Below, piece by piece: positions 11,398 to 30,548 of a stretch of 64,000 bases of DNA (position 1 is the stretch's first letter; each line of letters opens with the position of its first letter). The stretch is taken from NCBI GenBank assembly GCA_951812625.1, contig CATOSP010000003.1, positions 18,417-82,416 on the forward strand, in the 5' to 3' direction. Position numbers and translations under genes: made by a program. Below the pieces are notes generated by a model that was given only the letters and a program-made list of their open reading frames with translations, had not been told where the DNA came from and did not search any database. The DNA is from an uncultured Dehalococcoidia bacterium (GTDB lineage Bacteria; Chloroflexota; Dehalococcoidia; Lucifugimonadales; UBA3495).

Positions 11398-11423
11398 TAT
11401 TCTTGATTCTTGGATGCCCCTGT

Positions 11424-11637: not shown

Positions 11638-11641
11638 CAGC

Positions 11642-13403: not shown

Positions 13404-13842
13404 CCTTTCCAGCGGGGATAAACTTCCTGGCAGCGATGAAGTGGCTCGATACTGCAAACCCTCCGAGTACGACCTGGACGAAAACATGCCACTGGTCGGA
13501 GCGTTTCTCAGAAGGCAGGACGAACCCGACCTATCGGTCAATCGCCTGCAATTCTTTCAAGGCGCTGACAGGTCATCTGCGGTTGACTGTGTGAGGACCG
13601 AAGTCGGGGACCATTATCAACTCAGACGAAATGGACGGTTCGTGGTACTCAATGTGGGAGGTGTTCAGTCTGCCGCAAAGCAAAATGGGTTTGACGTGAG
13701 CATCATATACACACCCGAACTCCTTCGTCCCTCACACTCGTCCATTGTTGACTTGCCTCCAACCCGTAAGGATGAGTTGACGGTAGCCGCTGCTTTCTTG
13801 CGGTTGATCACCCCCGCCGACATCTATCCTGCCGTTCTCTGA
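13375..13842 (+). CDS. Hypothetical protein with an ADP-ribosyltransferase/RES-like R...S...H signature
   Basis: VARYC...AFLRR...DLSVN...PSHSSI. Confidence 0.5.
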   Translation: MSVLYPAANDLSSGDKLPGSDEVARYCKPSEYDLDENMPLVGAFLRRQDEPDLSVNRLQFFQGADRSSAVDCVRTEVGDHYQLRRNGRFVVLNVGGVQSAAKQNGFDVSIIYTPELLRPSHSSIVDLPPTRKDELTVAAAFLRLITPADIYPAVL

Positions 13843-13914
13843 CCACGCTGGTCTGCCGCTGCCCGCCCTGAATGTCCAACAGTCCCCCAACCAACCCGCA
13901 ACGGCCAAAAAAAC

Positions 13915-15216
13915 ATGAACACCACCGAAGCAAAACCGAAAGCCATCTTCCACGGCTGGTACATCCTGGCCGCCATCTTCTTCATCTCCGTGGTCAGCAA
14001 CGGCGCGCGCACCGCCTTTGGCGCGTTCGTCATCCCCATGGAGACCGACTTCGAATGGAGCCGTGGCACCATCTCCATGGCTGGCGCCGTCGGCTTCGTC
14101 ATTGGCGGACTCTCCCAGCCCTTCATGGGACAGGTCCTCGACCTGCTTGGCGGCAGAAAGGTGATCAGCATCAGCCTGGTCATCCTGGGAATCTCCACCG
14201 CCCTGCTCAGCTTCACCTTCCACCTGCTCTTCCTGGTCTTCGTGTTCGGGCTGGTGTCCTCCATCGCCCTCAGCGGCGCGTCCACCACCAACACCGGCGC
14301 GGTGCTGGCCCGGTGGTTCCGCCGCCGCCGCGCCACGGTCATGGGCCTCAACACCGGCGGCGTCTCCCTGGGCGGACTCATAATGGTCCCTTTCGCCGTC
14401 TACCTCATCCAGGCCGCAGACTGGCGTGTCGCCTGGGGCGCGCTGGGACTGATAATCCTGGTGCTGGCCGCCCCCCTGGCCTGGTTCGCCCTGCGCGACG
14501 ACCCGGCCCCCATGGGCCTCCAGCCCGACGGCGACCCCGATCCCAAGGAGCAAGGCGGACGCAACGCCCAGCCCCGGCAGCGGGGGCCGCTGGAAGTGGA
14601 AAAGTGGTCCGAGTCCTTCCGCTCCCTCCCCTTCTGGCAGCTCAGCGGCGCGCTCACCGTCTGCGGCACCACCACCGCTATCATCTCCTTCCACTTCATC
14701 GCCTTCGCCTCCGACAAGGGAGTCCCCGGCTCCACCGCTGCGGTGATCTTCGGCCTGATGATGTTCATGAACGCCACCGGCAGCATCAGCGTCGGCTTCC
14801 TGGCCGACAGGTTCAGCGCCAAGAACCTCCTGGCCCTCACCTACTTCACCCGTGGCCTGGCCTACGTCATCCTCCTCACCGTTCCCGGCGAGATGGGCAT
14901 GTGGATATTCGCCGTCGTTGCCGGAACGTCCTGGATTGCCACCAACCCGCCCACAACCTCCCTCACCGCCGACATCTACGGCGTCCGCGCCCTCGGCACC
15001 ATCGGCGGAATCTCCTTCCTGTTCCACCAGATAGGCGGCGCGGCCAGCATCCTCATGGCCGGTGTCCTCTACGACCTCACCGGCTCCTACCAGCTTCCCT
15101 TCGCCATCGCCGGGTCGCTGCTGTTCCCGGCTGCGCTGGCGGCGTTCACCATCAAGGAGAAGAAATACTCCATCCGCTACCAGCCGCCCGTCCCCGCTGG
15201 CGCGGCCTCCGGCTGA
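13915..15216 (+). CDS. MFS transporter (paralog of 4749..6062)
   Basis: FHGWYIL, LARWFRRRRATVMG, TTSLTADIYG, KYSIRY shared with the first copy. Confidence 0.9.
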   Translation: MNTTEAKPKAIFHGWYILAAIFFISVVSNGARTAFGAFVIPMETDFEWSRGTISMAGAVGFVIGGLSQPFMGQVLDLLGGRKVISISLVILGISTALLSFTFHLLFLVFVFGLVSSIALSGASTTNTGAVLARWFRRRRATVMGLNTGGVSLGGLIMVPFAVYLIQAADWRVAWGALGLIILVLAAPLAWFALRDDPAPMGLQPDGDPDPKEQGGRNAQPRQRGPLEVEKWSESFRSLPFWQLSGALTVCGTTTAIISFHFIAFASDKGVPGSTAAVIFGLMMFMNATGSISVGFLADRFSAKNLLALTYFTRGLAYVILLTVPGEMGMWIFAVVAGTSWIATNPPTTSLTADIYGVRALGTIGGISFLFHQIGGAASILMAGVLYDLTGSYQLPFAIAGSLLFPAALAAFTIKEKKYSIRYQPPVPAGAASG

Positions 15217-15343
15217 CCGGGGGAACTCCCATGAAACCAGCCCAAAACCGCACCCGGTCCGCCACCTCCCCCTTTCGCAAAAGTGGGATTGAGGGGGATT
15301 CCTCCGCACGCCAGCAGATTCGCGTGGACTTGAGATAGTTTCT

Positions 15344-15577
15344 ATGTGGGCCATCCTCCACTCCGTCGCCAGCCACCACGCCGACTCGGCAGACCCAACG
15401 CTGCTGGCCTGGATCAAGGAAGTGCTCGACCACTGGTTCGGCGTCGGACCCTGGGCTTTCGTCGCGGTGCTGGCCGTGATAATCCTGGCCATGCCCCTGG
15501 GCCTCATCGCCTTCTACCTGTCCCAGCGCCGCCGGGAGACCCACACCCCCCAACCCCCAATCTCCACCGACCGTTAA
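15344..15577 (+). CDS. Small membrane protein
   Basis: Hydrophobic stretch AFVAVLAVIILAMPLGLIAFYL; host-like codon usage. Confidence 0.6.
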   Translation: MWAILHSVASHHADSADPTLLAWIKEVLDHWFGVGPWAFVAVLAVIILAMPLGLIAFYLSQRRRETHTPQPPISTDR

Positions 15578-16142: not shown

Positions 16143-16188
16143 AAAAGACCCGCTTGAGAGGCTATGGGCCATCCTCAAGCGGGTTTTC
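16143..16188. terminator. Bidirectional terminator-like hairpin (repeat family T, copy 1)
   Basis: aaaagacccgcttgag...ctcaagcgggttttc. Confidence 0.6.
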
Positions 16189-16220
16189 GTGCTGTACCCT
16201 CGACAGGGAATCGGCATTTT

Positions 16221-16973
16221 ATGAAAACATTATTTCTCGATGAGTCGGGCGACCATAACTTATCCGAAATTGGTCCTGAATATCCCATATTTGTCCTTGG
16301 CGGGGTCATTGTAGAAGACTATGACGAACACCAATTGACGGAACGACTCAGCGAATTCAAGCGTGATATGTTCCGCGCCACCGACATCATACTGCACACT
16401 GCCGATATAACCCGCAATCGGAACGGGTTCGAGGCTCTCCAGGACTCGCGCTTTCGGGACCAGTTTCGTGACCGCTTGAATGAACTGATGCGGACTCTGT
16501 CATACTCAGTTGTGGCCTGCGCGATACAAAAGAAAGAACACCTTGGCCGATATGGAGCGACTGCCCCGGACCCTTATATGCTCAGCCTCGAGACCCTGGT
16601 AGAACGCTTTTGCTTTGACATCGGAGACGCCAATAAAGGCGGCTTCATCAGTAGAGGTGGGGTTATAGTTGCGGAAAAGAGGGGCCCGGCGTTGGACCAG
16701 GAGTTGGAGTTTGCATGGTCGAAGCTGAAAAGCGAAGGCACATACTGCGTTTCAGCAAGGGATATAGAAGAGCGGATATTGGGATTGGACTTGCGTTCCA
16801 AGAGGGACAATATCGCCGGATTACAGTTGGCCGACCTGGTGGTTTCTCCTATCGGACGCCACATCATGGGCAAGAGAGACCACGAGGATTGGGAAATCGT
16901 CAATCAGAAATTTTGCATCAGCCCCGTGACGGGACAGTCGGAAGGCTATGGCCTCGTAATACTGCCAAAATAA
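16221..16973 (+). CDS. DUF3800 domain protein (RNase H-like fold)
   Basis: LFLDESGDH, IILHTADI, IAGLQLADLVVSPIGR, GYGLVILP. Confidence 0.85.
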   Translation: MKTLFLDESGDHNLSEIGPEYPIFVLGGVIVEDYDEHQLTERLSEFKRDMFRATDIILHTADITRNRNGFEALQDSRFRDQFRDRLNELMRTLSYSVVACAIQKKEHLGRYGATAPDPYMLSLETLVERFCFDIGDANKGGFISRGGVIVAEKRGPALDQELEFAWSKLKSEGTYCVSARDIEERILGLDLRSKRDNIAGLQLADLVVSPIGRHIMGKRDHEDWEIVNQKFCISPVTGQSEGYGLVILPK

Positions 16974-17053
16974 AAAGGCTGGCTCCCGCTACGCAGTGGC
17001 CAACCTGTAGAGTTGCCGTGAGGCTGGCCCCCGCTACGCAGTAACCAGTCTGC
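16968..17053 (-). ncRNA. DUF3800-associated two-hairpin small RNA, convergent with the gene
   Basis: Two 31-nt units (16976-17006, 17021-17051) sharing the loop cccgctacgcagt; upstream promoter and terminal U-tract on the minus strand. Confidence 0.6.
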
Positions 17054-17059
17054 AAATAT

Positions 17060-17088
17060 ATGTTATGTGGGTAGCTGGAGTGTGTCAA
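17060..17088 (-). promoter_or_regulatory. sigma70-type promoter for the small RNA
   Basis: Minus strand TTGACA (17088-17083), 17-bp spacer, TAACAT (17065-17060). Confidence 0.6.
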
Positions 17089-17096
17089 GCGCCGAC

Positions 17097-17155
17097 AAAA
17101 AGACCCGCTGGAGGATGGCCCAACGCCCCCTCCAGCGGGTTCTTTCATGTGGAGA
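17097..17155. terminator. Terminator-like hairpin (repeat family T, copy 2)
   Basis: aaaaagacccgctggagg...cctccagcgggttctttcatg. Confidence 0.6.
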
Positions 17156-17246
17156 GCGTCCCTGCCCAGCTTGCCGGAAGGAATGGAGAGCAGGTAGACT
17201 CGGGCAAGAGTATTAGTGATTCACTAAAAGAGTGGCAGTCGAAGAG

Positions 17247-17522
17247 ATGAAGACCGTCAGCGTCACCGTGGATGACGACACCCACCGGAGGCTCAGGATC
17301 ATGGCGGCCGAGCGGGGGACTTCAGTCTCGGCAATGATCAGGGACCACATGCTCAGCGTCATAAACGGCCCGGCCCAGGGTGACGCGGGGGAAACAGAGC
17401 CCGAAAGACGCCGCCGCAGGCTGGCCGAGTTGACCGGGGAATTCCTCGACAAGGGCATCGGGCTCTCCATGTCCGACAACCTTGCCAGGGAGGAGATGTA
17501 CCAGGAGCGTGCGCCTCGCTGA
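17247..17522 (+). CDS. RHH/CopG-type antitoxin (VapB-like)
   Basis: MKTVSVTVDDDTHRRLRIMAAERGTSVSAMIRD...LAREEMY. Confidence 0.8.
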   Translation: MKTVSVTVDDDTHRRLRIMAAERGTSVSAMIRDHMLSVINGPAQGDAGETEPERRRRRLAELTGEFLDKGIGLSMSDNLAREEMYQERAPR

Positions 17523-17931
17523 TTCCAACATCCTCCTCTACGCCGTCAGCTCTGATCCGGCGGAGGCCGGCAAGCGCGCCAGGGCCATAGAGGTCCTGGG
17601 AGAGGACTCCCTGGCCTTGTCGGTCCAGGTCCTCCAGGAATTCTACTACCAGGCAACCCGCCAGTCCCGGCCAGGCAGGCTCAGCCACGCCGCCGCCCTG
17701 CGCTTCATAGACCGGCTGGCGGAAGTGCCCGTGCAACCGGTGACAACCCGGGTCTTCCGGAGGGCGGCGGAAATCAGCGACCGCTTCGGCATATCTTACT
17801 GGGACGCCGCCATCCTGGCGGCAGCACAGCTCATCGGGTGCGAGGCGGTCTACTCCGAAGACATGAACGACCAGCAAGACTACGGCGGACTAAGGGTAAT
17901 CAACCCCTTCAACCAGCAACACCCCGCCTGA
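17509..17931 (+). CDS. vapC: PIN domain toxin (VapC)
   Basis: ADSNILLYA, SVQVLQEFY, ISYWDAAILAAA, VYSEDM. Confidence 0.88.
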   Translation: MRLADSNILLYAVSSDPAEAGKRARAIEVLGEDSLALSVQVLQEFYYQATRQSRPGRLSHAAALRFIDRLAEVPVQPVTTRVFRRAAEISDRFGISYWDAAILAAAQLIGCEAVYSEDMNDQQDYGGLRVINPFNQQHPA

Positions 17932-18040
17932 GGACGCACCGAAGCCAACACCCCCTCCAGCGGGTTCTTTCATGCGGAGACTAACCCAGAAACGGAAAAG
18001 CCCCGGTAGGACTACCGAGGCCCCTTGCAGCACTGCTGAA

Positions 18041-18289
18041 TTACCGGATTAGACCCAGCCGTCTGGCGTCCTCTTCAGTCCACTGAGTGCCGTTCAATAC
18101 GTTGCCCAATGTCCCGCGTGGCAGGGTGTCGCTGCCCCGGTGGTAATGGATCAGGGCCTTTCTGCCGTCAGGATGTCGGTACATCCGGCTAGAACCTCTA
18201 GGCCGCTGATAAAGTCTGAATCCATCTCGTTCCAATGCCTGCACCAAGTCCCTTGCGGAGACGTTTCGCAGAAGATGGACCAGGTTCAT
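18041..18289 (-). CDS. hicA: HicA family toxin
   Basis: ALERDGF..RGSSRMYRHPDGRKALIHYH..DTLPRGTL; the usual GSH histidine is Ser. Confidence 0.75.
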   Translation of the reverse strand: MNLVHLLRNVSARDLVQALERDGFRLYQRPRGSSRMYRHPDGRKALIHYHRGSDTLPRGTLGNVLNGTQWTEEDARRLGLIR

Positions 18290-18513
18290 GGGTGAATCGC
18301 TACTGTGTCCTCAAACGCCTCTACTTCATCATTGGGAACAGGCTCGCCATACTCCAGCATACACTCGACGAACAAGGCCGTTCCCTCACGCAACGCTTCC
18401 AATGCCTCGTCCTTCGTATACCCCCAGGCGGCGCAACCGGGCAGCGAGTCAATCCACGCGCTCCAGCGCCCATCGGCCTCTTCTTGCAGCGAAACCTTGA
18501 ATGTATACGTCAT
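18286..18513 (-). CDS. hicB: HicB family antitoxin
   Basis: WSAWIDSLPGCAAWGYTKDEALEALRE...GEPVP. Confidence 0.85.
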   Translation of the reverse strand: MTYTFKVSLQEEADGRWSAWIDSLPGCAAWGYTKDEALEALREGTALFVECMLEYGEPVPNDEVEAFEDTVAIHP

Positions 18514-18638
18514 CGGAATTCGTCCTGACCGTTGACAGTGTACTTACGTCATTATACCCTTGAACAGTAAGAACCGGGCGGGGTTCCCTGCGGGAATCAC
18601 ATCTGGTTCTTTCTTTTCTTTGAAGATTCCCCTGAATC

Positions 18639-19247
18639 CTATTCCTCACTTGCCGGGTCAGTCGGTTTACAAATATCGGCGAAACAACCCAAGGCAAGGA
18701 AAACGAACCCGAAAAGGAAAGCCATCGTTGCAGCGCTAAGAGTCCAACGAGATAGGTCGAAATCTCCTTGTATATCCGAGCTCAAGCGTATCCCGAGAGC
18801 GACATCAATCGATCCCACGATACATGCTGTCAAGAGTGTGGCGCAGAACCCCAAGTGGAACGCTGAAAGAAAGTAGGATATTGTCCCCGTTTTCCTCCAA
18901 TATCTGGATTTAGATTCCGCATCTTTAGTCGGTCGTCGGCTAACATCCCGCAATAAGACCACAGTGTAATAGACGCCGGCGGACGCGCCGAGCCCCAATG
19001 TTATGATGACCTCAATATTCTGTACTAGGATCGGGTCGACTAAACCCATGGAAATTGTGGGCAAAATAGCAAGCACGGATAGCGCGAACACCACGCACAG
19101 CGGCGTTCGCATATCCCGTCGATCATCCGGTGATAATATTTGATTGTAGCGTAGAACCCCTCTCCACGCTGGTTGTATCAAGATAAAAGTGATGGCCAAC
19201 AGCGCTATTGAGATGACCACAATGTTCGTCGAGATGCCCTGCAGCAT
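18639..19247 (-). CDS. Hypothetical multi-pass membrane protein
   Basis: About five hydrophobic segments, lower GC. Confidence 0.55.
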   Translation of the reverse strand: MLQGISTNIVVISIALLAITFILIQPAWRGVLRYNQILSPDDRRDMRTPLCVVFALSVLAILPTISMGLVDPILVQNIEVIITLGLGASAGVYYTVVLLRDVSRRPTKDAESKSRYWRKTGTISYFLSAFHLGFCATLLTACIVGSIDVALGIRLSSDIQGDFDLSRWTLSAATMAFLFGFVFLALGCFADICKPTDPASEE

Positions 19248-19402
19248 AAGGTCTACCGCCTCTCCGAGTCTTATGGTTAGATATTAGCGTTTCAGGGCAC
19301 ATTATTCTCGGCCCGTCTGTCAGCACTCTACCCTACCCCCACATCCCCCACCCAGGTACCAAACCACCAGGTACAAACCCACCCCCCACTGACACGCGCC
19401 CA

Positions 19403-19432
19403 TTGACGGCCACCGCAACCAACCTCTAGCAT
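19403..19432 (+). promoter_or_regulatory. Putative sigma70 promoter of the packaging operon
   Basis: TTGACG (19403-08), 18-bp spacer, TAGCAT (19427-32). Confidence 0.45.
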
Positions 19433-19440
19433 GGTATTGC

Positions 19441-19484
19441 AGGGACGGACCCGGCTGATAAGTCGGCCCGTCCCTTTATTTTTT
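19441..19484 (+). terminator. Promoter-proximal intrinsic terminator/attenuator
   Basis: agggacgg-acccggct-gata-agtcgg-cccgtccct followed by ttatttttt. Confidence 0.7.
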
Positions 19485-19500
19485 GCCGAGGTGATCGCCA

Positions 19501-19671
19501 GTGCGCTGTAGACGCTGCTACTCCTCAAGCTTGCTCGTCCTCAACCGGAAGCACCCCGGGGACAACCACGTCGTCCGCTGCCGCGACTGCGGTTTCCTCT
19601 TCAGTCCCCCGGTGCCGGACAGCCACCCCGAAAACCCCGGCTCCGGCGCGGCCACGCCCGGACAGGCATAG
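19501..19671 (+). CDS. Small zinc-ribbon protein (56 aa, CxxC...CxxC), not in the ORF track
   Basis: GTG start after the GAGGTGA RBS: MRCRRCYSSSLLVLNRKHPGDNHVVRCRDCGFLFSPP...; stop 6 nt before the terminase start. Confidence 0.7.
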   Translation: MRCRRCYSSSLLVLNRKHPGDNHVVRCRDCGFLFSPPVPDSHPENPGSGAATPGQA

Positions 19672-19677
19672 GCCCGG

Positions 19678-21270
19678 TTGGCCCATGTATCGACCAACGG
19701 CAACCCGAACAACAAAACCCGGAACAACAAAACCCGGAACAACAAAACCCAGAGCAATAAAACCCAGAGCAATAAAACCCAGAGCAATAAAACCCCGGCC
19801 AATAAAACTCCGGCCAACAAAACCCCGGCCAACGGGACCCCGACCGGTCGGACCCCGGCCAGCCAAAAGCTGTTGCCCGTCGACTTCGCCAGGGAGGTGC
19901 TGGGAGTGACACTCTGGAGCAAGCAGGAAGAGGTGCTCAACGCCCTGCCCCACAACCGCCGCGTCGCCGTCAAGTCCGCCAACGGCATGGGCAAGGGCTT
20001 CTGCGCCGCCGTGGCCGTCCTATGGTTCCTCTACTACCACGAACAGGCCATCGTCCTCACCACCGCACCCACCTTCCGCCAGGTCCGCCACATCCTCTGG
20101 CGGCAGATCCGCCAGCTTCACAGCCAGGCCCGGCTCCCCGACCTGCTCGGCGGCGACATGTTCATCGCCCGCTGGGAGCTTTCCGGCGACCGCTACGCCA
20201 TCGGCCTCTCCGCCGGCAGCGCCGACCAGTTCCAGGGCTTCCACAGCGAGAACATGCTCATCGTCGTCGACGAGGCCGAGGGAGTCAGCGAGGAGATATA
20301 CGAGGCCATCGAGTCCGTCATGACCTCCGCCTCACCCCGCCTCCTCCTCATCGGCAACCCCACCACCATGACTGGCGCATTCCGCCGCGCCTTCGAGCGG
20401 GAACGCCGCCTCTACCACACCGTCACCATCTCCGCCCTGGAAAGCCCCAACATCTCTGAGGACACTGCTGCATACCTGCGGCCCGGCACGGGAGCGGCGG
20501 ATAGGACCCGTCCCCCGATTGAGGACAGGATAGTCATCCCCGGCCTGACCACCGGGGAATGGGTCGAGGAACGGCGGGAAATCTGGGGCGAGGACAGCTC
20601 CATCTACCGCTCCAGGGTCCTGGCCCAGTTCCCCGAGCAGGGCGACGATACCCTCATAAGGCTGTCCGACATCGAGGCCGCAGCCGTCGAGACCGAGAAC
20701 ACCATTGACCTCCCCGATCCTGCCACCGGCAAACTCCCCGGCGACGTGGTGCTGGCCGTGGACGTGGCCCGCTTCGGCTTCGACCGCAGCGTCATACTCC
20801 GCCGCCGGGGAGACCGGGTCGAGGACATTCAGACCCTCTCCGGCATGGACACCATGCAGGTCGCCGGACGGGTGATCGAAGCCATCCGGGAGTCCTCCCC
20901 CGACAGTGTGGTGATCGACGAGGTCGGTATCGGCGCGGGCGTCGTCGACCGCCTCCGCGAGCAGGGCTACACGGTCCGCGGCATCAACGTCGGGCGCAGG
21001 GCGCACCGGGACGACCGGTTCGTCAATCGCCGCGCCGAGGGCTACTGGCGTCTCCGCAGGTTGTTCGAGTCCCGGAGCATCCTGATTCCCCCGGACAACC
21101 GGCTCATGGGAGAGCTGTCCGGCCTCCGCTTCGACTATGACAGCCAGGGCCGGTTGAAAATGGAAAGCAAGGAGTCCATGCGCGCCCGCAACCTCCCGTC
21201 CCCCGACAGTGCCGACGCCCTGATGCTAGCCTTCCTCGACCCGCCCAACCGGGTCAAACTGTGGACGTGA
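19678..21270 (+). CDS. terL: Phage terminase large subunit
   Basis: Walker A VAVKSANGMGKG, Walker B LIVVDEA, motif III IGNP, nuclease LAVDVARFGFDRS, VIDEVGIGAGVVDRL and SPDSADALML. Confidence 0.9.
   Translation: MAHVSTNGNPNNKTRNNKTRNNKTQSNKTQSNKTQSNKTPANKTPANKTPANGTPTGRTPASQKLLPVDFAREVLGVTLWSKQEEVLNALPHNRRVAVKSANGMGKGFCAAVAVLWFLYYHEQAIVLTTAPTFRQVRHILWRQIRQLHSQARLPDLLGGDMFIARWELSGDRYAIGLSAGSADQFQGFHSENMLIVVDEAEGVSEEIYEAIESVMTSASPRLLLIGNPTTMTGAFRRAFERERRLYHTVTISALESPNISEDTAAYLRPGTGAADRTRPPIEDRIVIPGLTTGEWVEERREIWGEDSSIYRSRVLAQFPEQGDDTLIRLSDIEAAAVETENTIDLPDPATGKLPGDVVLAVDVARFGFDRSVILRRRGDRVEDIQTLSGMDTMQVAGRVIEAIRESSPDSVVIDEVGIGAGVVDRLREQGYTVRGINVGRRAHRDDRFVNRRAEGYWRLRRLFESRSILIPPDNRLMGELSGLRFDYDSQGRLKMESKESMRARNLPSPDSADALMLAFLDPPNRVKLWT
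19708..19860 (+). repeat. 15-bp tandem repeat (about 10 units) encoding xNKTx pentapeptides at the terminase N-terminus
   Basis: aacaacaaaacccgg x2, aacaacaaaacccag, agcaataaaacccag x2, then gccaa(t/c)aaaac(t/c)ccg variants. Confidence 0.9.
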
Positions 21271-21292
21271 GGCCCGAATACCGGATGAGCGG

Positions 21293-21367
21293 AATGTCCG
21301 GTCAGTCGGCCACGGACTACCATACTTGTCCGCATATGTCCGCAAAAACCGAAAAATCTCCCCCTTT
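21293..21367 (+). repeat. Dispersed repeat R, copy 1
   Basis: 33-bp core aatgtccggtcagtcggccacggactaccatac plus tail atgtccgcaaaaaccgaaaaatctccccc. Confidence 0.9.
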
Positions 21368-21475
21368 CGCAAGAGAGGGATCAGGGGCATTTTCGTCTAC
21401 CCCAGGGAAGAAACGTCAAAGGAGCAGCACCCGCCCAACAAGGTCAAACCGTGGACGTAAGGCCACAGGGCGGAA

Positions 21476-22132
21476 TCAGGTTGTCGTTAGGTTTCTGACC
21501 ACGATCACACGGGCCAGGATGTCAAATGCGTGGCGTCTATCCTCACGGATTATGACCATAATTCCCATCGGTATCACAACACAGCACATGGCAAGCCAAT
21601 GGATCATCCAGAAGGTTAGTGTGGCTGTCAGCATCACCAGCTCGAATGAGTCCAACGGCTCCAACCTGAACGTGAGCGCCACCAGGGACACGAGTGGGTC
21701 CAATATCCCTGAGATGAATGGGTCCAGTAGGTCCCCGGCTCCCATCGACAGGATAATCCACAAGATGCTCATCAGGACAAAGAGGCCCCACGGTGCAATG
21801 TCATACAACGAGCGGACTGCTGCCTGCCGGAGAGTGACCCTGCCTCCTGTACGTAAATCTCGGACCCGCCCGCCAAATACCAGGTGACCGAGGTGACCTC
21901 CCCAGGCTCGGTAACTCAAGACGTGGTACGAAAAATAGACCAATGCCAGCACTTCTCCCGAGAGAAAAGGGAGAGGCATTGAGGGGAGCGCAAACGGTGG
22001 CATACCGCCAAGGACCAGCCACGGGAGGTTGTCTAGAAGGCGCGCAAGGAGCCTCCTGCGTCGGTCCAGGGGCGCAGAATTGTCAGGGGTTACGTCTGAT
22101 GCACTGGACTCTTGAATGGTGCTGGCCCTCAT
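21476..22132 (-). CDS. RDD family membrane protein inserted between terminase and portal
   Basis: RRLLARLLD, GHLGHLVFGGRVRD, RQAAVR, RRHAFDILARVIVV. Confidence 0.75.
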   Translation of the reverse strand: MRASTIQESSASDVTPDNSAPLDRRRRLLARLLDNLPWLVLGGMPPFALPSMPLPFLSGEVLALVYFSYHVLSYRAWGGHLGHLVFGGRVRDLRTGGRVTLRQAAVRSLYDIAPWGLFVLMSILWIILSMGAGDLLDPFISGILDPLVSLVALTFRLEPLDSFELVMLTATLTFWMIHWLAMCCVVIPMGIMVIIREDRRHAFDILARVIVVRNLTTT

Positions 22133-22281
22133 TGGACAGGATGGGCATTGCCAAACAGGCTCTTTCGCCAGTGAAGCATTCAGGGGCACAACCGCGCCCC
22201 GCTTCTTGGAAGGGGCTGCCTTGGGTAGGAGACCTGTCTGGACCGGAAATCCAATCGCCACCATACTCTACAAGCAAACGA

Positions 22282-22356
22282 AATGTCCGGTCAGTCGGCC
22301 ACGGACTACCATACATGACCGGAAATGTCCGCAAAAACCAAAAAATCCCCCCTTTT
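22282..22356 (+). repeat. Dispersed repeat R, copy 2 (direct orientation with copy 1)
   Basis: Identical 33-bp core and similar tail. Confidence 0.9.
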
Positions 22357-22583
22357 CTCAAGGGGAAGACCAAGCGGGGATGTATCTTCATACCGGCAGG
22401 TCAACGAAGACCCGGGGTAGTTTTGTACAGCCTGTCCAAGCGGCAACCGGCAGCGGGCAGTACATACCCACCATCCACATATACCGTTCATATATACCAC
22501 ACAAACGATACATATATACCGCCCATATCGACCATCCAGAGATACCCCTACACATATACCCCATATATCAGTGAGGAAATACC

Positions 22584-23918
22584 ATGACAACCTCTACAGT
22601 CGGACCTACCCCCGGTAACTTGCAGGTTCCCTCATACCTCCGCCGCCTCCGCCACGGCGTCACCCGCAGCCTCCGGGCAACCTTCGGCTCCGTGTTCCGC
22701 TCCCTGCCCGTCCCGGCGGCACGCCGCAAGGCCAACCGCGCCGCCTCCCGCGACGTGGACTGGCTCGACGGCTACACCGGCGCCGGTTCCGGCTGGGCGC
22801 CCACCGGCTACGGCAGCTACTACGCCGGTTCCGCCCCCGTCTACTCCGCCATCAGGCTCCGCGCCGACGCCCTCACCCGCGCCCCGGTGGTCGTCCACCG
22901 CATGACCGGCGAGGGACCGGGCCTCTCCGTCGGTCCGTCCCACCCCGTCCAGCGCCTCCTCGACCGGGTCAACCCCTGGTACACCCGCGGCGACCTCTGG
23001 CGCGCCACCGAAATCTACCTCGACCTCTGGGGCGCGGCCTTCTGGGCCCTGGAGCGCGGCCAGGACGGCGAGTGGGAAATCTGGGCATTGCGCCCCGACC
23101 GCGTCAGCGTCGTCCCCGACCGGCAACGCTACATCCGTGGCTTCGTCTACCAGGGACGCACCGGCCCGGTGGCCTACACCCCCGACGAGATGGTCTGGCT
23201 CCGCTACTTCAACCCCCTGGACGAGTACGCCGGGCTCTCCCCCATCGCTCCCGCCCGCATGTCCGTGGACATGGGCCGCGACGGGCTGCGATTCAACCGC
23301 AACTTCCTCCGCAACTCCGCCCGCCCCGACTTCCTCTTCCTCACCAACGAGAGCATGAACGACGTGGAGGTCGAGGAGTTCTACAACCGCTGGGAGGCCC
23401 GTCACCGGGGCGTCGCCAACCCCAACCGCCCCGCCATCGCCAGCTTCATCCGCGACGTCAAGACCCTGGGCTTCAGCCACCGCGACATGGACTTCATCCA
23501 GGGTCTCCGCTGGAGCCTCGAGGACGTCAGCCGCGTCTTCGGCGTCCCCAAGCCCCTGCTCTCAGACCTGGAGCGCGCCACCTTCGCCAACATCAACGCC
23601 GCCGAGCGCATCTTCTGGCGCAACACCATGCTCCCCCAGGTCGGCTTCCTGGAAGAGCAGATCAACCGGATGCTCCTCCCCCGTCTCGGCTACCCCAACC
23701 TCGCCATCAAATTCGACCTCAGCAACATCGAGGCCCTGCGCGAGGACGAAAACAGCCGCGTAACCCGCGAGACCCAGCTCCTCGACCGTGGCGTCCTCAC
23801 CATCAACGAAGTCCGCCGCTCCCGCAACCTCCCCGAAGTCCCCTGGGGCCACCACTGGGCCGGCGCAACCCGCACGGACTCCCCGACCCCCGAAACCGCC
23901 AGTGATAAAATGGAATAA
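22584..23918 (+). CDS. Phage portal protein, HK97 family
   Basis: YFNPLDEYAGLSPI, DMDFIQGLRWSLEDVSRVFGVP, ATFANINA, GVLTINEVR..NLPEVPWG. Confidence 0.9.
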   Translation: MTTSTVGPTPGNLQVPSYLRRLRHGVTRSLRATFGSVFRSLPVPAARRKANRAASRDVDWLDGYTGAGSGWAPTGYGSYYAGSAPVYSAIRLRADALTRAPVVVHRMTGEGPGLSVGPSHPVQRLLDRVNPWYTRGDLWRATEIYLDLWGAAFWALERGQDGEWEIWALRPDRVSVVPDRQRYIRGFVYQGRTGPVAYTPDEMVWLRYFNPLDEYAGLSPIAPARMSVDMGRDGLRFNRNFLRNSARPDFLFLTNESMNDVEVEEFYNRWEARHRGVANPNRPAIASFIRDVKTLGFSHRDMDFIQGLRWSLEDVSRVFGVPKPLLSDLERATFANINAAERIFWRNTMLPQVGFLEEQINRMLLPRLGYPNLAIKFDLSNIEALREDENSRVTRETQLLDRGVLTINEVRRSRNLPEVPWGHHWAGATRTDSPTPETASDKME

Positions 23919-23941: not shown

Positions 23942-24205
23942 ATGGACAAGACCAGGAAAATCCGCGACGAAGACTTCCCCACCGAGGTCGCCTTCTGGGA
24001 AGCCAACAAAGAGGAACTGCGCAAGCAATATCTGGGCAAGTACCTCATAATCCGCGGCGAAGAAATACAAGGAGTCCTGGACACAATCGGCGACCTGATG
24101 ATCGCGGAAGAACAGGAACTGGCGGAAAACCCGGCCCTCGTCCGCTACGTCAACGATGGTAAGCCCGAGTTCAGCCCATTCTCGCTAGAGGTAGATCGTG
24201 CCTGA
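23942..24205 (+). CDS. DUF5678-like small protein
   Basis: FWEANKEELRKQYLGKYLIIRGEEIQG; coupled to an aspartyl protease gene. Confidence 0.6.
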   Translation: MDKTRKIRDEDFPTEVAFWEANKEELRKQYLGKYLIIRGEEIQGVLDTIGDLMIAEEQELAENPALVRYVNDGKPEFSPFSLEVDRA

Positions 24206-24614
24206 ATTCACAGGCCAGATCGAGAACGGAGCGAGGGTCAGGGTTAGATTCACAACAACCCGCGTTGGCAGCATCCCAATGACAGGGATGGGTCTCATAG
24301 ACACCGGTGCGACCTATACCCACGTCGACCAGGAAACCGCTGAAATCCATCGGTTCAGACGACTCGACACGGTAACAGTGAACACCGCGAGTCAGAGGGG
24401 TGCAGAAGTGCCAACATACGCCATGGTGGTCGAAATCCTGGACCTGCCTGGGCATAGGGAGCAACTTCGGGTCAGAGGATTTACCGGTCCTGCGCCAAGG
24501 CCGGGACAGCCTCCAACAGAGAGGCTGATAGCCCTGGTAGGCTGTGACATCCTAAACCGCGGCCGCTTCACCTACGACGGAGCAGCCGGCACCTTCACAT
24601 TAGATCTACCGTAA
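24198..24614 (+). CDS. Retropepsin-like aspartyl protease
   Basis: GLIDTGAT active-site motif and ALVGCDIL. Confidence 0.75.
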   Translation: MPEFTGQIENGARVRVRFTTTRVGSIPMTGMGLIDTGATYTHVDQETAEIHRFRRLDTVTVNTASQRGAEVPTYAMVVEILDLPGHREQLRVRGFTGPAPRPGQPPTERLIALVGCDILNRGRFTYDGAAGTFTLDLP

Positions 24615-24826
24615 CCCGTTCCATGTCGGACCGCGGTGAAGGCGAGGGAGAATAAACTTGTCGCGGATAATCATATGGTTGCCCGGTTTGAGATTTATCT
24701 GCACCCACAATCATGGACTTTTGCATCCTCTGCCGTGAAAGCTGTATCCTAAGTCCCTCTCGTAAGTAGAGACTGTTGAGTCCTAGCTTCGATTGCGACC
24801 AAGCCACCAGTTGGCAAGGAACGCGA

Positions 24827-25468
24827 ATGACCACGCAGACCATACCGCCAGAAGCCATAAGCGTTAGCGATTGGCAGCAGCTTTTCACCCATGAGGTGGA
24901 TGCTGGTGACGTGGCGTGGAGGTTCCATCTGCCGGAACCAACCGTCACGGTCCACCCGTCCACGCCTGAAACACCCCCAGAACCCGAACAAAGTCATGAC
25001 CACCCCGACAGCCGGGAAATCAGCAAAACCGTGGGCCGCATTGCAATGTCTGTCCTCATGACGGACTCTGACGAAAGGCTCGACTACTTGCAGACGTTGA
25101 ACCCCAACCTGACCGAAGACCACCTGGACCAGATCGCCCTGACAACAGACCGATGGCTGGATCACCCGGCGAGGGACCGAATGAGAGCCATCGTCCGCCG
25201 CTGCCATGATAGCCAGTCCTACCCAAAGAATATGCTGATCGAGTGGACCACGCCCGAGGAGGTCCAAAGGCTGGTCGACTTGCTCCTGGAAACCTCAATT
25301 CCGGACCCGACCCTCGCTATGTGCTATGCGATGTGCGCAGCCCACGACACGGCTTACGCCGCATTCCGCATCCACGAGAATCGTGCACACCGCCAGGCAG
25401 ACTTCTCCAACATTGAGCAGACCCCGGAAGAAATCGCAGGTGACCTGCGCTTCGTCAACGCCGAATAG
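24827..25468 (+). CDS. Hypothetical protein upstream of a double-PemK gene
   Basis: AAGGA RBS; 12-nt gap to the next gene. Confidence 0.55.
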   Translation: MTTQTIPPEAISVSDWQQLFTHEVDAGDVAWRFHLPEPTVTVHPSTPETPPEPEQSHDHPDSREISKTVGRIAMSVLMTDSDERLDYLQTLNPNLTEDHLDQIALTTDRWLDHPARDRMRAIVRRCHDSQSYPKNMLIEWTTPEEVQRLVDLLLETSIPDPTLAMCYAMCAAHDTAYAAFRIHENRAHRQADFSNIEQTPEEIAGDLRFVNAE

Positions 25469-25480
25469 GAGACGGACCCG

Positions 25481-26170
25481 GTGCCGCCCGCCGTCAGGGG
25501 TAGCGTCTATTGGTATGACTACGGCCCCGTCATAGGCAACGAACTCTCCGGCAGACGGCCCGCGCTGATAATCAGCAACACGGAATTGAACCTCCAACTT
25601 TCTACCGCCATAACCATCCCAATGTCCTCTACCATCCCTTCAGGCAGGCGCCTCCAGAACCATGCGCCCGTAGAAGCAGCAGACTCATGGGCATCTGTTC
25701 GACAGATCAAGGCGGTAGACCAGCGGAGACTGGGGGCCAAAATCGCCGATGCAACACCGCACGAGTTGGAAAGGATTTGGGAAATCCTCGTAGCTCGCCT
25801 GGACAGCAGGAGAAACCGTCCCGGCACTATTCAGACCCCATCAGGCGACGAACAGATCGGCCCTGGCACAATCTGGGAGGTCGAGTTTCACGCTCCTGAT
25901 GGCTCTGTCTTGCCCGCCCAAATGTTGGTGCTGGACTACAACGATGGAAACAAGATGGCCATTGCAGTCGAGGTCGAACACCGCGGGTCGCCGGATTCAC
26001 CGGTCCTAATACCCATCAACATGATCGGCGGGACTCAACCCGCGTCCGCCCTCGTTCACCGGGTAAGGTCAATCGACGTAGAGGCCAGAACCGTGAGCAA
26101 GACCGGAGTGGCAGATGAAGCCAGCCTGGTATCAGTCGGCCAAGCTCTCTTGTCCCTGATAGATCGGTAG
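25481..26170 (+). CDS. PemK/MazF family toxin with a second degenerate PemK domain
   Basis: RGSVYWYDYGPVIGNELSGRRPALIISN...QIKAVDQRRL; second unit PGTIWEVEF...SALVHRVRSID. Confidence 0.75.
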   Translation: MPPAVRGSVYWYDYGPVIGNELSGRRPALIISNTELNLQLSTAITIPMSSTIPSGRRLQNHAPVEAADSWASVRQIKAVDQRRLGAKIADATPHELERIWEILVARLDSRRNRPGTIQTPSGDEQIGPGTIWEVEFHAPDGSVLPAQMLVLDYNDGNKMAIAVEVEHRGSPDSPVLIPINMIGGTQPASALVHRVRSIDVEARTVSKTGVADEASLVSVGQALLSLIDR

Positions 26171-26236
26171 AATCCAACTCAAGCCCGGATACAACTACAC
26201 TGCGATCCTCGACAGGTTGAAGCGAGGGATCAAACA

Positions 26237-27969: not shown

Positions 27970-28533
27970 CTAGCGGGGGAATATGTCCCTCACGGCGCAG
28001 GTAAAGCCGGGGAGAACGTCCCCGCCGTCCAGGTTGTCCTGCTCACCCAGCAGAACGGGAGGGCCGGATGCGGGATGGACTTCCACGGTGCGGGACTCAG
28101 GGAACACGACCCACACCAGCGCAACGCCGAAGCGCAGCCACATCTGCGCCTTGTCGTTCACCGCGGCCAAACTGTCGGAAGGAGAAGCGATCTCAACCAC
28201 CAGGTCGGGCGCACCCTCGTAGAATCCGGGAGCATCCACGTCCAGCGGCAGCTTCTCCGCGCAGATATATGCAATGTCCGGCTCCCGCACCGTGTCCGGG
28301 CCGCGTTCCAGCATCATCCCGGCGTCGGAAGCAACAAGCCGGCCTAGACGCAGAGGCCGGATAAATGATAACAACAAGAAAATCAGAGTCGTTACGATCT
28401 CGCCGTGCCTTATTCCTGCCGACACTTTCTCTACCAGCACCCCTCTTATCAACTCGCCGCCGGTGCCCTCGCTGTAGAGACGGAGCAGGTCGTCAGCCGT
28501 CAGCAGTTTCGGTCTTGCCTTCGATGTAGTCAT
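27970..28533 (-). CDS. Uma2 family endonuclease
   Basis: ELIRGVL, REPDIAY, APDLVVEIASPSD, VWVVFP, LPGF. Confidence 0.88.
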   Translation of the reverse strand: MTTSKARPKLLTADDLLRLYSEGTGGELIRGVLVEKVSAGIRHGEIVTTLIFLLLSFIRPLRLGRLVASDAGMMLERGPDTVREPDIAYICAEKLPLDVDAPGFYEGAPDLVVEIASPSDSLAAVNDKAQMWLRFGVALVWVVFPESRTVEVHPASGPPVLLGEQDNLDGGDVLPGFTCAVRDIFPR

Positions 28534-28547
28534 AGTTTTGCAGTGCC

Positions 28548-30548
28548 CTATGCGTCCGAATTGAACAGGTGCTTCTGGAACCACCCCAGCGTGCGGGCCA
28601 GGTACTCTTCCCGCATCTTCGGGTGTCCCAGCCGGGTGAAGGAGTGGGAAGACCCGGGGAACCGCACGAACTCCACCTCCTTGCCCAGCCGCTTCAGCAG
28701 GGTGTAATACTCCTCGCTCTGGGAGATGGGGCAGCGGTAGTCCGACTCCCCGTGCAGCAACAGCACCGGCGCGGTGACGTTGCCCGCGTAGGTGATGGGC
28801 GAGCGGAAGAGCAACTCCTGGGCGGCATCGGCCACCGTCCCGCCCCACTGGACCTCGCCGAAGCTGGCGCCTATGTCGGAGGTGCCGTACATGCTGTAGA
28901 GGTCGGTGCAGGGCGCGCCCACCACGCCGGCCACGAACCGGTCGGTGTGGCCCAGGGTCCAGCTGGTCATGAACCCGCCGTAGCTATAGCCGTGTACTCC
29001 CAGCCGCGCCGGGTCCACATAGGGACGCTCCGCCACCAGGTCAACTGCGGCCATCAGGTCCAGGTAGTCCTCGCCGCCCCAGTCCTCCAGCACCGCCGTC
29101 ATGAACCCGTCGCCGTAGGTCGAGGAACCACGGGGGTTGACCGCCAGCACCAGGCAGCCCGCAGTGGCCAGCACCTGCTGCACCGTGGCGAAGGCGTCGT
29201 AGAACGCCCCGTTGGGGCCGCCGTGAATGTCGATCACCAGCGGGTACTGCCGCGACGGGTCGAAGTCCGGCGGGAACCACAACCTAGACTCAATGGGGAA
29301 CCCGCCCCGCTCGAAGGTGAACTTCTCCATGGTTGCCGGTGGGCACTCAGCAAGGTACTCGGCGTTGACCTCGGTAAGCTGCTTGCTGGCACCGGTGTCC
29401 AGGTCCAGCAGCAACAGGTCTCCGGGAGAGGACGGCGACGCCGACAGTTCGACGGCGCGGCGGGCGTCCCGGTCCAGGGCCAGGCCCGAGGTCTGCCGAG
29501 AGCCGCCGTAAAGCTCGTGGACGCCTCCATCATCGACATTGGCCTCGAAGAGGTATGACTCGCCCCGGCGCTCCCCCAAGAACAGGATGCGGCCGTCTTC
29601 CTGCCAGCGTATCGACGGGCCGGGATTCATCGGAGGGAAGCTGACGAAGGGCTTGATGGAGTCGTCGGTGATCCGTTGCGGTTCATGGCCGGGTTGGATG
29701 ACATATAGCCAGGACTGCCATGACACCATGCCTGTGGGGACATCGGTGGCGGCGGCCAGGAGCCTGTCCCCGTCGGGCGACCATGCCAGGGCTCCGACCC
29801 CGCGCAGCCCCTCCGACCATAGCTCCGGTGTTCCGCCTCCAGCGCCACCCCCGGACTGAATGGACGGGCCACTAGCGGACACCACGTAAGCCTCGGTCAA
29901 GGCGTAGATGTCGCGGTCGTCCCGACGCCCGGAGATGAAGGCAACCCGTGAGCCGTCGGGAGACCATGCCCCGGCGTAGTCGTCCCAGTCCCCGTCGGTA
30001 AGCTGGCTGGTCTTTCCATCAGCCGCGTTCACGGTGAACAGGTGGAAGTGGGCATCCCCGCGCCAGCCCAGGGTGTCGTAGCGGTACCTGATGCGGTGGA
30101 TTTCCGTAACTCTCGGGACCGACTCGGGAAGGCCATCGCCCTCAGGGGAGTCCTCCGGAACGTCGGCGCACACCAGCAGCCGCGCGCCGTCTGGAGACCA
30201 TGAGAAGTCCGACGCGCCGCCCGCAAGCGACGTGAGCTGCCGAGCCTCGCCGCCGCCCGCCCCCATGAGCCAGACCTGCCGCTTGTCCCTGTCGTCGGGC
30301 CGCAGGAACCCCAGGGTCTGGCCGTCGGGCGAGAACTTGGGCGCACCGTCCCTCGTCCCCTGCGTGAACTCCACGGTCTGACCGGACTCCAGGTCCATGA
30401 GCATGATCCGGGAGCGGCCTTCCATCTTCTCAGCGTCCACCCACGACAGGGCGTAGGCCAACCGGGACCCGTCGGGAGACAGGGCCGGGTCTCCCACATT
30501 CTTCAGCTTGTAGATAACGTCAGGCGCAATGGGGCTGGTCATGGCCAT
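28548..30548 (-). CDS. S9 family peptidase (acylaminoacyl peptidase) with beta-propeller
   Basis: SPDG repeats, IHGGP, GYSYGG nucleophile, HGESDYRC, FPGSSH. Confidence 0.92.
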   Translation of the reverse strand: MAMTSPIAPDVIYKLKNVGDPALSPDGSRLAYALSWVDAEKMEGRSRIMLMDLESGQTVEFTQGTRDGAPKFSPDGQTLGFLRPDDRDKRQVWLMGAGGGEARQLTSLAGGASDFSWSPDGARLLVCADVPEDSPEGDGLPESVPRVTEIHRIRYRYDTLGWRGDAHFHLFTVNAADGKTSQLTDGDWDDYAGAWSPDGSRVAFISGRRDDRDIYALTEAYVVSASGPSIQSGGGAGGGTPELWSEGLRGVGALAWSPDGDRLLAAATDVPTGMVSWQSWLYVIQPGHEPQRITDDSIKPFVSFPPMNPGPSIRWQEDGRILFLGERRGESYLFEANVDDGGVHELYGGSRQTSGLALDRDARRAVELSASPSSPGDLLLLDLDTGASKQLTEVNAEYLAECPPATMEKFTFERGGFPIESRLWFPPDFDPSRQYPLVIDIHGGPNGAFYDAFATVQQVLATAGCLVLAVNPRGSSTYGDGFMTAVLEDWGGEDYLDLMAAVDLVAERPYVDPARLGVHGYSYGGFMTSWTLGHTDRFVAGVVGAPCTDLYSMYGTSDIGASFGEVQWGGTVADAAQELLFRSPITYAGNVTAPVLLLHGESDYRCPISQSEEYYTLLKRLGKEVEFVRFPGSSHSFTRLGHPKMREEYLARTLGWFQKHLFNSDA

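Follow-up and report, generated by a model that had tools for sequence, protein, structure and literature searches.

The stretch of DNA analysed here, referred to as the window, comprises 64,000 nucleotides (G000:C3:18417-82416) from the genome of an uncultured Dehalococcoidia bacterium (G000; 4.03 Mb in 5 contigs, ~60% GC, assembly completeness 94.9%). It carries three plus-strand genes of a phage-type DNA-packaging system, namely a gene for a 56-residue zinc-ribbon protein (Znr; 19501-19671, GTG start), a gene for a large terminase (TerL) of 530 residues (19678-21270) and a gene for an HK97-family portal protein of 444 residues (22584-23918). The original prediction, made from the letters of the window, had described this trio as an orphan packaging module that is kept vertically in the lineage.

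Packaging genes, capsid operon and leader hairpins

For the portal protein, the match to PF04860 (E = 6.4e-66; 223 bits, cut-off 39.1) covers profile positions 3-320 of 321, phrog_2662 is matched at 4.5e-79, and no second gene of the G000 genome has a portal match above the Pfam cut-off. The best match of an 11-orthologue portal profile in the Protein Data Bank (PDB) is the portal of the gene transfer agent (GTA) RcGTA (6tba, E = 6.6e-35), which stands beside ordinary phage portals. For TerL, phrog_2 ("terminase large subunit") is matched at 2.7e-39, the C-terminal domain resembles PDB entry 8dkr ("Large terminase protein", 3e-6), and every match to a Pfam terminase model lies under its cut-off. 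The ATPase motifs (Walker-A-like KSxNGxGKG, Walker B VVDEA, and GNPTT) and the motifs of the RNase-H-like nuclease (DVARFG, DExGxGxGVxDRL, and SPDxADAL) are conserved in 11-12 of 14 aligned orthologues, the exceptions being G025 and G035 (several motifs), G007 (one residue) and G015 (last motif absent). With a Walker A/B ATPase and an acidic-residue nuclease, the protein has the features of a large terminase, and both activities are predicted. These family matches and conserved motifs bear out the description of the terminase and the HK97-type portal as intact open reading frames (ORFs).

The core of TerL begins at approximately residue 62. A 15-nt tandem repeat of 8.3 copies (19702-19825, plus strand; detected with TRF) lies in frame in the 5' region of the gene and encodes (N/S/A)NKT(R/Q/P) pentapeptides at residues 9-49. 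This repeat is specific to G000, the orthologues being free of it and ~450 residues long, and its copy number varies, as seen from one public contig that skips 60 nt (19738 to 19799), or four units, in frame. The start codon of TerL is uncertain, and may be TTG 19678 or a later codon, e.g., TTG 19873. In G011, the TerL gene is split (L024 4686-9232); the N-terminal 232 residues end at 5384, and the C-terminal part resumes at ~8249 within a 712-residue ORF starting at 7094, after an insert of ~2.9 kb, which may be an intein, an intron or a mobile element.

For Znr, the CRRC...CRDC motif is accompanied by a variable Pro/Gly/Ala-rich tail, and the four Cys residues are invariant in all 17 sequences; the sole Pfam match, to CPxCG_zf, is weak (7e-4) and under the cut-off. 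The close coupling to TerL that had been noticed in the window holds, with a stop codon 7 nt ahead of the TerL ORF and an upstream position in 16 of 17 relatives' loci. In G006 (L018 ~7750-9300) and G009 (L022 ~11036-12650), Znr and TerL share the same frame with one stop codon between them, which could be a readthrough fusion or a coincidence. From the position and linkage, the conservation, the 7-nt gap and the shared frame in these two genomes, we infer that the Znr protein is a partner of TerL, acting either as a stand-in for the small terminase or as a TerL regulator.

Two matches to capsid families were found in the G000 genome, one in an operon on contig C1 (~525.2-530.0 kb), the partner of the window trio, and the other in a separate island on contig C2. 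In the C1 operon, the gene for an S78-like prohead protease (phrog_80, 2.6e-15) precedes that for an HK97-fold capsid protein whose N-terminal region is delta-like (C1:526116-527444; PF05065 at 27 bits, cut-off 24.2; phrog_10 at 4e-10). Genes of 163, 93, 137 and 143 residues follow, and after them a gene for a 274-residue head-tail adaptor (phrog_442, 8e-11), the C-terminal part of which has weak tail-fibre matches. The dispersed capsid and protease genes that the original prediction had proposed to look for are therefore present, together with an adaptor, and its description of the module as an orphan does not stand, as these genes co-occur with the portal. The relatives compared here are mostly metagenome-assembled genomes (MAGs; completeness 82-99%, several long-read), in which absence means "not found". 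The C1-type capsid occurs in 23 of 41 genomes; among the 40 relatives, 21 have both capsid and portal, 16 have neither, two have the portal only (G020 and G036), and one has only a 47-residue capsid stub (G003).

The distance between portal and capsid ranges from 4-5 kb (G025 and G032) through 10-25 kb to >400 kb or separate contigs. In a survey of genome_contigs with one genome per species, the capsid lay within 10 kb of the portal in one of the 80 loci examined, which were the best 80 of 184 portal hits. The split of the packaging and capsid loci is thus old and general. A contiguous C1-C3 join in G000 does not follow from G003, where the two loci are ~10 kb apart, as the surrounding order differs from that of G000. 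The G032 locus was rejected as an orthologue; it is a different prophage fragment with a T4-type terminase and transposases.

The C2 island (G000:C2:867386-876620; L004:4387-13621) adjoins an acetyl-CoA synthetase gene. Its genes encode a tyrosine integrase (with Arm-binding, central and catalytic domains), a head-completion protein, an S78-like protease and an HK97 capsid; a TerL-like gene is also present, as is a portal-like gene just below the cut-off (PF04860, 37.9 bits). The island looks like a capsid-forming satellite or a mini-prophage.

The Znr-TerL operon is preceded by a putative sigma-70-like promoter (19403..19432, plus strand; TTGACG, 18 nt, TAGCAT), located by a consensus scan, and by a leader hairpin, a putative terminator or attenuator (19442..19484, plus strand; folding energy -22.3 kcal/mol), of the form GGGACGGACCC...GGCCCGTCCC followed by TTTATTTTTT; the Shine-Dalgarno (SD) sequence GAGGTGAT lies 5 nt ahead of the GTG start of Znr. 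Across genomes, the Znr leader has the same layout, a GC-rich hairpin that starts with GGGAC and ends with GTCC(C), a T-rich run, GGAGGTG, and the start codon. The TTGAC(A/G) and TAGNNT elements are aligned in 9 of 11 genomes from seven genera, and TAG..T is invariant in all 11; G002 has no -35 element, and the available stretch of G018 begins inside it. RNAalifold of the 11 leaders gave 12 pairs, four of which have pair-keeping changes on both sides.

Essentially the same arrangement precedes the protease gene of the capsid operon, where TTGACA, ~18 nt and mostly TAACCT are aligned in 9 of 11 genomes. The hairpin GGGAC-NN-AC(C)C...G(G)T-NN-GTC(C/T) is present in 11 of 11, with covarying NN (GC, AG, CG, AA), and is followed in most genomes by a T-rich sequence and then the SD sequence. 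The layout of promoter, hairpin and T-run thus stands in front of both operons in many genera. The strict pattern of promoter and hairpin found the Znr leader only, and a looser one was needed for the protease leader. In G000, the hairpin pattern occurs at 23 places, of which only the Znr and protease leaders combine a stable stem with at least eight T within the 14 nt that follow; the similar third hairpin, at C1:396563, was rejected as a leader, being an ordinary terminator after an unrelated gene. These comparisons suggest that the two operons may be commonly regulated, via read-through of, or binding to, the leader hairpin.

In G025, an order-level relative, head and tail genes lie together within ~17 kb. 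The order begins with TerL, portal, two small genes and an insertion sequence (IS) element; protease and capsid come next, and then five or six genes that are small or unknown, one of them for a LamG-domain protein. The adaptor follows, ahead of genes for the tail terminator (phrog_17840, 3.6e-16) and the major tail protein (phrog_10528, 6.4e-30), further small genes, and a gene for a 653-residue protein. Genes for the terminator, the tube and a ~660-residue protein also lie 3' of the adaptor in G007, G011, G018, G019 and G024. The profile of the tube protein matches 9 of 41 genomes and that of the ~660-residue protein 10 of 41 (G007, G011, G013, G017, G018, G019, G024, G025 and G035, with a broken match in G036), and neither profile matches G000, its six genus-mates, G009, G012, G014, G015, G021, G028 or G037. 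In G000, a full-sensitivity hmmsearch with the relatives' tail terminator, major tail protein and ~660-residue protein over ORFs of at least 50 residues gave a best E value of 0.21 in the 94.9% complete assembly, and the Pfam tape-measure, sheath and Phage_tail_2 families (PF10145, PF04984 and PF06199) had no match. As tailed genomes flank the tail-less clade on both sides in the RpoB tree, the simplest reading is that the tail was lost at least twice, in the G000 clade and in G028/G037.

The tail-less clade also shows a gain, tandem 137/143-residue paralogues beside the adaptor (G000, G001, G002, G004, G006, G012 and G015), and its adaptor is only 33-41% identical to that of the tailed genomes, compared to 67-72% for the capsid in the same genomes. 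The predicted structure of the 143-residue protein is an eight-stranded jelly roll (pLDDT 83). Foldseek returned generic jelly-roll matches only (E ~1e-3, TM 0.4-0.5), among them the cement protein of phage KHP40, and the likeness to a cement protein is a weak lead. The possibility that the paralogues are disguised tube proteins was rejected (hhalign against the major tail protein family, probability 0.65%).

Distribution, co-divergence and selection

Counting G000, 24 of 41 genomes have a portal match, as do 17 of 24 same-family relatives, with identities of 80-82% within the genus, 67-72% within the family and 38-62% within the order. The syntenic orthologues that had been suggested as a check were found, with the same flanks in several genera. 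TerL adjoins the portal in all 17 relatives' loci and Znr is present in 16 of them, seven of the 17, from four genus-mates and three other genera, have the host S9 prolyl-oligopeptidase-family gene next to the portal, and the host MFS transporter gene lies upstream of the trio in 5 of 18, in different genera (hits to the MFS gene and its antisense frame). In the wider survey, again for the best 80 of 184 hits, 75 of 80 loci have TerL upstream of the portal at a distance of <4 kb and 69 of 80 have Znr upstream, and the titles of all 80 read Dehalococcoidia, Chloroflexota/Chloroflexi or SAR202. When the class was sampled evenly, 4 of 150 other genomes had a strong portal match (E <=1e-110), one from the same order and three from one family of another order.

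The capsid, portal and TerL trees (LG+G4, "quick" mode, as for RpoB) recover the well-supported groups of the RpoB tree, namely G025 with G035, G011 with G019 (in the case of the portal also with G017), and the genus clade, in which G000 is sister to the rest. The comparison of TerL with a species marker, which the original prediction had called for, therefore favours descent with the host. The Spearman coefficients between identity to G000 and RpoB identity are 0.97 for the capsid (n = 17), 0.90 for the portal (n = 15) and 0.95 for TerL (n = 14), descriptive figures that overstate the agreement because related genomes are not independent.

Selection was estimated as NG86 dN/dS, in within-genus medians, with dS of 0.8-1.2 for capsid, portal, TerL, protease, adaptor and S9; alignment rows with split or broken genes were excluded (TerL of G011, G028 and G019, portal of G015 and G018, and protease of G035). 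The ratios are 0.084 for the capsid, 0.126 for the portal and 0.155 for TerL, compared to 0.098 for the host S9 gene, with 0.16 for the protease, 0.17 for the adaptor and 0.40 for Znr. The dS values near 1 in pairs with G000 are close to saturation; closer pairs (G002-G004, dS 0.1-0.3) gave equally low ratios for capsid, portal and TerL. With these low ratios, and with dS similar between the module and the host gene, relaxed selection, which would have spoken against a retained system, is not seen.

The search for close phage relatives gave none, either among phage records or in IMG/VR. Of 50,697 phage records, 1768 have a portal match, all at <60% identity and the listed ones at ~25-27%, and the best listed identity for the capsid in the same records is ~24%; the prospect that the closest relatives are active phages thus did not materialise. 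In IMG/VR, 94 of 102 candidates are portal relatives, comprising four short contigs at 44-51%, one fragment at 77% and the rest at <=34%. One short contig carries p143, the adaptor and the portal, and looks like a chromosomal fragment.

As had been noticed from the window, family searches of its ORFs (sets of 16, 13 and 43) revealed no integrase, capsid, tail, lysis or replication family. Genes for integration, replication or lysogeny were found neither in the window nor in the 20 kb around the capsid locus, a lack shared with GTAs. The alternative of a complete prophage just outside the window is likewise excluded, as the flanks are host genes conserved across genera. The host-like composition, the absence of prophage genes and the host genes flanking the trio in relatives do not fit an intact or recent prophage. 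Taken together, the synteny, the RpoB-congruent trees and the dN/dS ratios indicate that the module is chromosome-resident and vertically inherited, as is expected of a GTA.

The module has been lost recently in the nearest species. In G003 and G005, whose RpoB is 95% identical to that of G000, the portal is unmatched; the region from MFS to S9 runs collinear with the window except that 16159-23794 is replaced by ~1.9 kb of unrelated DNA, and the last ~120 nt of the portal gene remain as a stub. At the capsid locus of the same genomes, the protease gene is still in place but the capsid gene stops after its first ~190 nt, and ~3.6 kb are deleted, up to the 3' end of the adaptor. The stubs at both loci indicate that the module was present there in the common ancestor and that it is dispensable; the 7 of 24 family genomes without a portal match also speak for dispensability. 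A patchy distribution had been named as evidence against vertical retention; the portal is indeed limited to 17 of 24 family genomes, but the pattern is one of loss, not gain, because the gene trees follow RpoB and the nearest species keep stubs at both loci.

Accessory cassettes and flanking genes

The codon style of the trio is host-like, unlike that of the lower-GC cassettes around it, as the original prediction had stated. At third codon positions, the GC content (GC3) reaches 0.86 in Znr, 0.89 in the TerL core and 0.91 in the portal gene, compared to 0.55-0.66 for the cassette genes. The host flanks have similar values, 0.90 for the MFS transporter gene (13915..15216, plus strand; PF07690 at 9.8e-46) and 0.86 for the S9 gene (28548..30548, minus strand; PF00326 at 1.5e-49), with a genome median of 0.74 over 560 long ORFs. 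GC3 is 0.55-0.71 in the interleaved accessory genes (DUF3800, an unknown 202-residue gene, the RDD gene, orf138, orf230 and MazF-like). The frame "orf591m" (13732-15507, minus strand) was rejected as a conserved unknown neighbour, being an antisense frame of the MFS gene.

A cassette of 1313 nt (21271..22583) separates TerL from the portal. Of the claim that an accessory cassette splits the pair, the insert of 1.3 kb stands, but its content differs from that envisaged: its most likely product is a single membrane protein of the RDD family, encoded on the minus strand (21476-22264; PF06271 at 1e-6; GC3 0.64), and the plus-strand ORFs at 21261-21887 and 21943-22587 were rejected for want of a family match and for a poor codon-position GC pattern. 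In genus-mates with both ORFs called, the spacing between TerL and portal is ~13 nt (G002 and G004) or ~370 nt (G001). Public contigs in two of four sequencing runs join 21301 to 22315, across two repeat copies and skipping 1013 nt; therefore, a cassette-free form exists.

The repeats at the cassette ends are 84-nt direct repeats (21290-21373 and 22279-22362, 89% identical). This repeat, with the core ATGTCCGGTCAGTCGGCCACGGACTACCATAC, has ~20 copies in the genome and occurs again in the window at ~34060-34101; it may mark a cassette-insertion or recombination system. The cassette also holds a copy of the last 36 nt of TerL (21429-21464; original 21239-21274; 89% identity), and at a second cassette (L005:12516-12635 / 13510-13629) 40 codons of the adaptor 3' end are duplicated with 90% identity. 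The duplicated gene 3' ends at the two cassettes suggest insertions that target and regenerate gene 3' ends. Directly 5' of the portal start, inside the inserted DNA, lie short repeats of the CATATATACC type (22463-22560), with at least five copies of a 13-15-nt motif (CCATCCACATATACC-like) spaced by 13-26 nt. These copies could form a binding array, or could provide the portal gene, now separated, with a new promoter.

Downstream of the portal and outside the module, a second accessory stretch (24198..26218, plus strand) contains orf138, orf230 and a MazF-like gene (25481-26170; PemK_toxin at 3.5e-24), with GC3 of 0.60-0.71. Positions 24616-26218 are missing in G003 and G005 and are skipped by public contigs in two of four runs. 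The skipped stretches indicate that the cassettes are strain-variable, while TerL and the portal stay.

The low-GC3 genes of the window are of toxin-antitoxin (TA) or defence type (PIN with an RHH partner, MazF, AAA_21/DUF4435, Uma2, PaREP1 and DUF3800). They are dense between host metabolic genes, at 2083-4055, 27970-28848, 34384-34767, 46140-47127, 49646-50131 and 56870-57676, where an AAA_21/DUF4435 ATPase, a fragment of a type I restriction-modification S-subunit, four Uma2-family endonuclease genes and three PaREP1-family genes were found. Elsewhere in the window, a cobalamin riboswitch (RF00174, 86.9 bits; 57797-57987, plus strand) precedes a ChuX/HutX-like gene and several cobalamin genes (CobQ-like, CobA/BtuR and CobT), and two adjoining ORFs at 34914-36593 (minus strand) match the UGSC family at profile positions 1-92 and 101-171, which may represent a single gene with a frameshift or an assembly error.

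Origin and possible function of the module

We consider that the trio and the C1 operon form an ancient phage-derived head-packaging module that is chromosomally fixed, vertically inherited, GTA-like, and tail-less in this clade, with a probability of about 0.6. The part of the original prediction that saw a vertically kept packaging system rather than a recent prophage agrees with the fixed site, the RpoB-matching trees and the low dN/dS. In such a module, some signal would lead to transcription of both operons from the sigma-70-type promoters, and transcription would have to pass, or be stabilised by, the conserved 5' hairpin with its U-run. The protease and the capsid protein would then build a prohead on the portal, TerL would pump DNA in and cut it, probably with the Znr protein replacing the small terminase, and the adaptor would close the portal and the head. 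The ancestor would have had a siphovirus-type tail, the genes of which persist in the deeper relatives. Since tail genes were not found in the G000 clade, the product there would be a DNA-filled, tail-less head.

Among known systems, GTAs are described in a general account as phage-derived head genes in the host chromosome (PMC5721377). The module shares with RcGTA its chromosomal phage-derived head genes at several loci, long vertical inheritance, purifying selection, and the absence of integrase and replication genes, and it has the gene order TerL, portal, protease, capsid and adaptor in common with HK97-like heads. It differs from RcGTA in its phylum, Chloroflexota, in the Znr gene at the place of the small terminase, in packaging and capsid operons that are apart in nearly all genomes, and in the tail genes, which are few in the deeper relatives (terminator, tube and the ~660-residue protein) and not found in the G000 clade. 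The tail that would serve as the delivery apparatus of a GTA was not found in G000 at 94.9% completeness, and the gene-level comparison with RcGTA covered the portal, with its PDB match to 6tba; we place the module with GTAs or domesticated phages in general rather than within the RcGTA family.

Similarly, HK97-like siphoviruses share the PF04860 portal, the PF05065 capsid, the S78-like protease and the phrog_442 adaptor and, in the relatives, the phrog_17840 terminator and the phrog_10528 major tail protein, but the best listed identities are ~27% (portal) and 24% (capsid), and the module has no phage genome context. PBSX of Bacillus subtilis is a set of chromosomal, non-replicating particle genes under host control, and elements of the PBSX type are contiguous clusters with complete tails and lysis genes. 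The module is likewise chromosomal, non-replicating and phage-derived, but it is dispersed, and tail genes were not found in the G000 clade.

Several observations weigh against the reading as a vertically inherited head-packaging module. The loss in the two nearest species and the 7 of 24 family genomes without a portal match speak for a dispensable function, and in 6 of 23 portal-bearing relatives the portal match is split or contains stops, which may reflect sequencing errors, many of the genomes being long-read MAGs, or decay. In G000, tail, lysis and small-terminase genes were not found, so that release and delivery are unexplained; as the assembly is 94.9% complete in 5 contigs, the missing genes could lie in gaps. 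The TerL lineage of G000 evolves faster, with a dN/dS of 0.23 in pairs with G000 and the gained N-terminal repeat. The leader hairpin with its T-run could simply terminate transcription or stabilise the RNA, and the similar hairpin at C1:396563 ends an unrelated gene. Finally, the system is known here from genes alone.

A head machine co-opted for another purpose, such as interference with infecting phages, whose DNA it would compete for or mis-package, or a compartment for protein or DNA, is an unlikely explanation, although the best placed of those that we weighed against the head-packaging module. It would account for the loss of the tail while the head genes stay under purifying selection, for the clade-specific jelly-roll paralogues added beside the adaptor, and for the position of the module amid defence/TA-type cassettes (PIN, MazF, AAA_21/DUF4435, Uma2 and DUF3800). 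However, the neighbouring cassettes are strain-variable and not conserved with the module, and the nuclease and ATPase motifs of TerL are kept together with the adaptor, as for genuine DNA packaging and head closure. We know of no precedent for a whole head module serving defence, although no search aimed at one was made.

The idea of a cryptic prophage remnant, the leftovers of an old infection persisting by chance without use to the host, is improbable. The tail, lysis, integrase and replication genes that were not found, the scattering of the genes over loci broken up by cassettes, the loss in the two nearest species, and the stops and frameshifts in the portals of some relatives are what such decay would produce. 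Against this, dN/dS is 0.08-0.17 at dS ~1, equal to the value for a host enzyme, intact catalytic motifs are seen across genera, co-divergence with RpoB extends up to the order level, the two unlinked halves are kept or lost together, and the promoter and leader are conserved. Neutral remnants do not persist over such a span.

Capsid-forming PICIs (cf-PICIs) are self-packaging mobile islands that carry genes for integrase, regulation and replication. A satellite of this type, still mobile, making its own small heads and borrowing helper-phage tails, is an equally improbable origin: the kept adaptor of the tail-less clade, the separate C2 island with integrase and head genes in G000, and a gene content that corresponds to the packaging part of cf-PICIs, as described in a preprint (bioRxiv 10.1101/2025.02.11.637232), fit it, but neither locus has an integrase, repressor, primase or att site nearby, the halves are unlinked (capsid <10 kb from the portal in 1 of the best 80 of 184 loci), the fixed site between host genes, the host-congruent trees and the host-like codon usage point to the chromosome, and an element with its halves at two loci is unable to package itself as one unit.

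The comparison with cf-PICIs bears on the output of the module. In the same preprint, cf-PICIs have their own TerL, portal, protease, capsid and connector and no tail, and they release tail-less DNA-filled capsids that are able to take foreign phage tails (bioRxiv 10.1101/2025.02.11.637232). The module resembles them in having its own head and packaging genes and no tail, as judged from its genes alone, and differs in being without mobility genes, split over two loci, fixed, and co-diverging with the host. In origin and host control it would thus resemble a GTA, and in output a cf-PICI. A more specific reading, which we regard as possible but doubtful, is that of a head-only machine, kept under purifying selection, that has shed its own tail and releases DNA-filled tail-less heads. 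It would be a "tail-borrowing" gene transfer agent that belongs to the host, and the shared read-through 5' hairpin would co-regulate its unlinked loci. The tail-less heads would be armed by the tails of unrelated phages of the community, or would enter cells via the fibre-like C-terminus of the adaptor and the jelly-roll proteins.

Among the papers searched, as judged from titles and abstract openings, we came across no description of such a module in SAR202, Dehalococcoidia or Chloroflexi. GTAs are known from a handful of lineages, and the long-lived vertical ones are best documented in Alphaproteobacteria. To our knowledge, nothing is known about gene exchange in SAR202-type Dehalococcoidia, an abundant and uncultured lineage. 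If the reading as a vertically inherited head-packaging module is correct, it would represent an independent, order-wide domestication in Chloroflexota (SAR202-type Dehalococcoidia), in which the series from a compact tailed cluster through split loci and tail-less forms to deletion makes the steps of domestication and decay directly comparable, and the shared leader hairpin offers a concrete handle on regulation. If the tail-borrowing reading were also true, an abundant uncultured lineage of ocean, soil and sponge would possess a gene transfer agent owned by the host.

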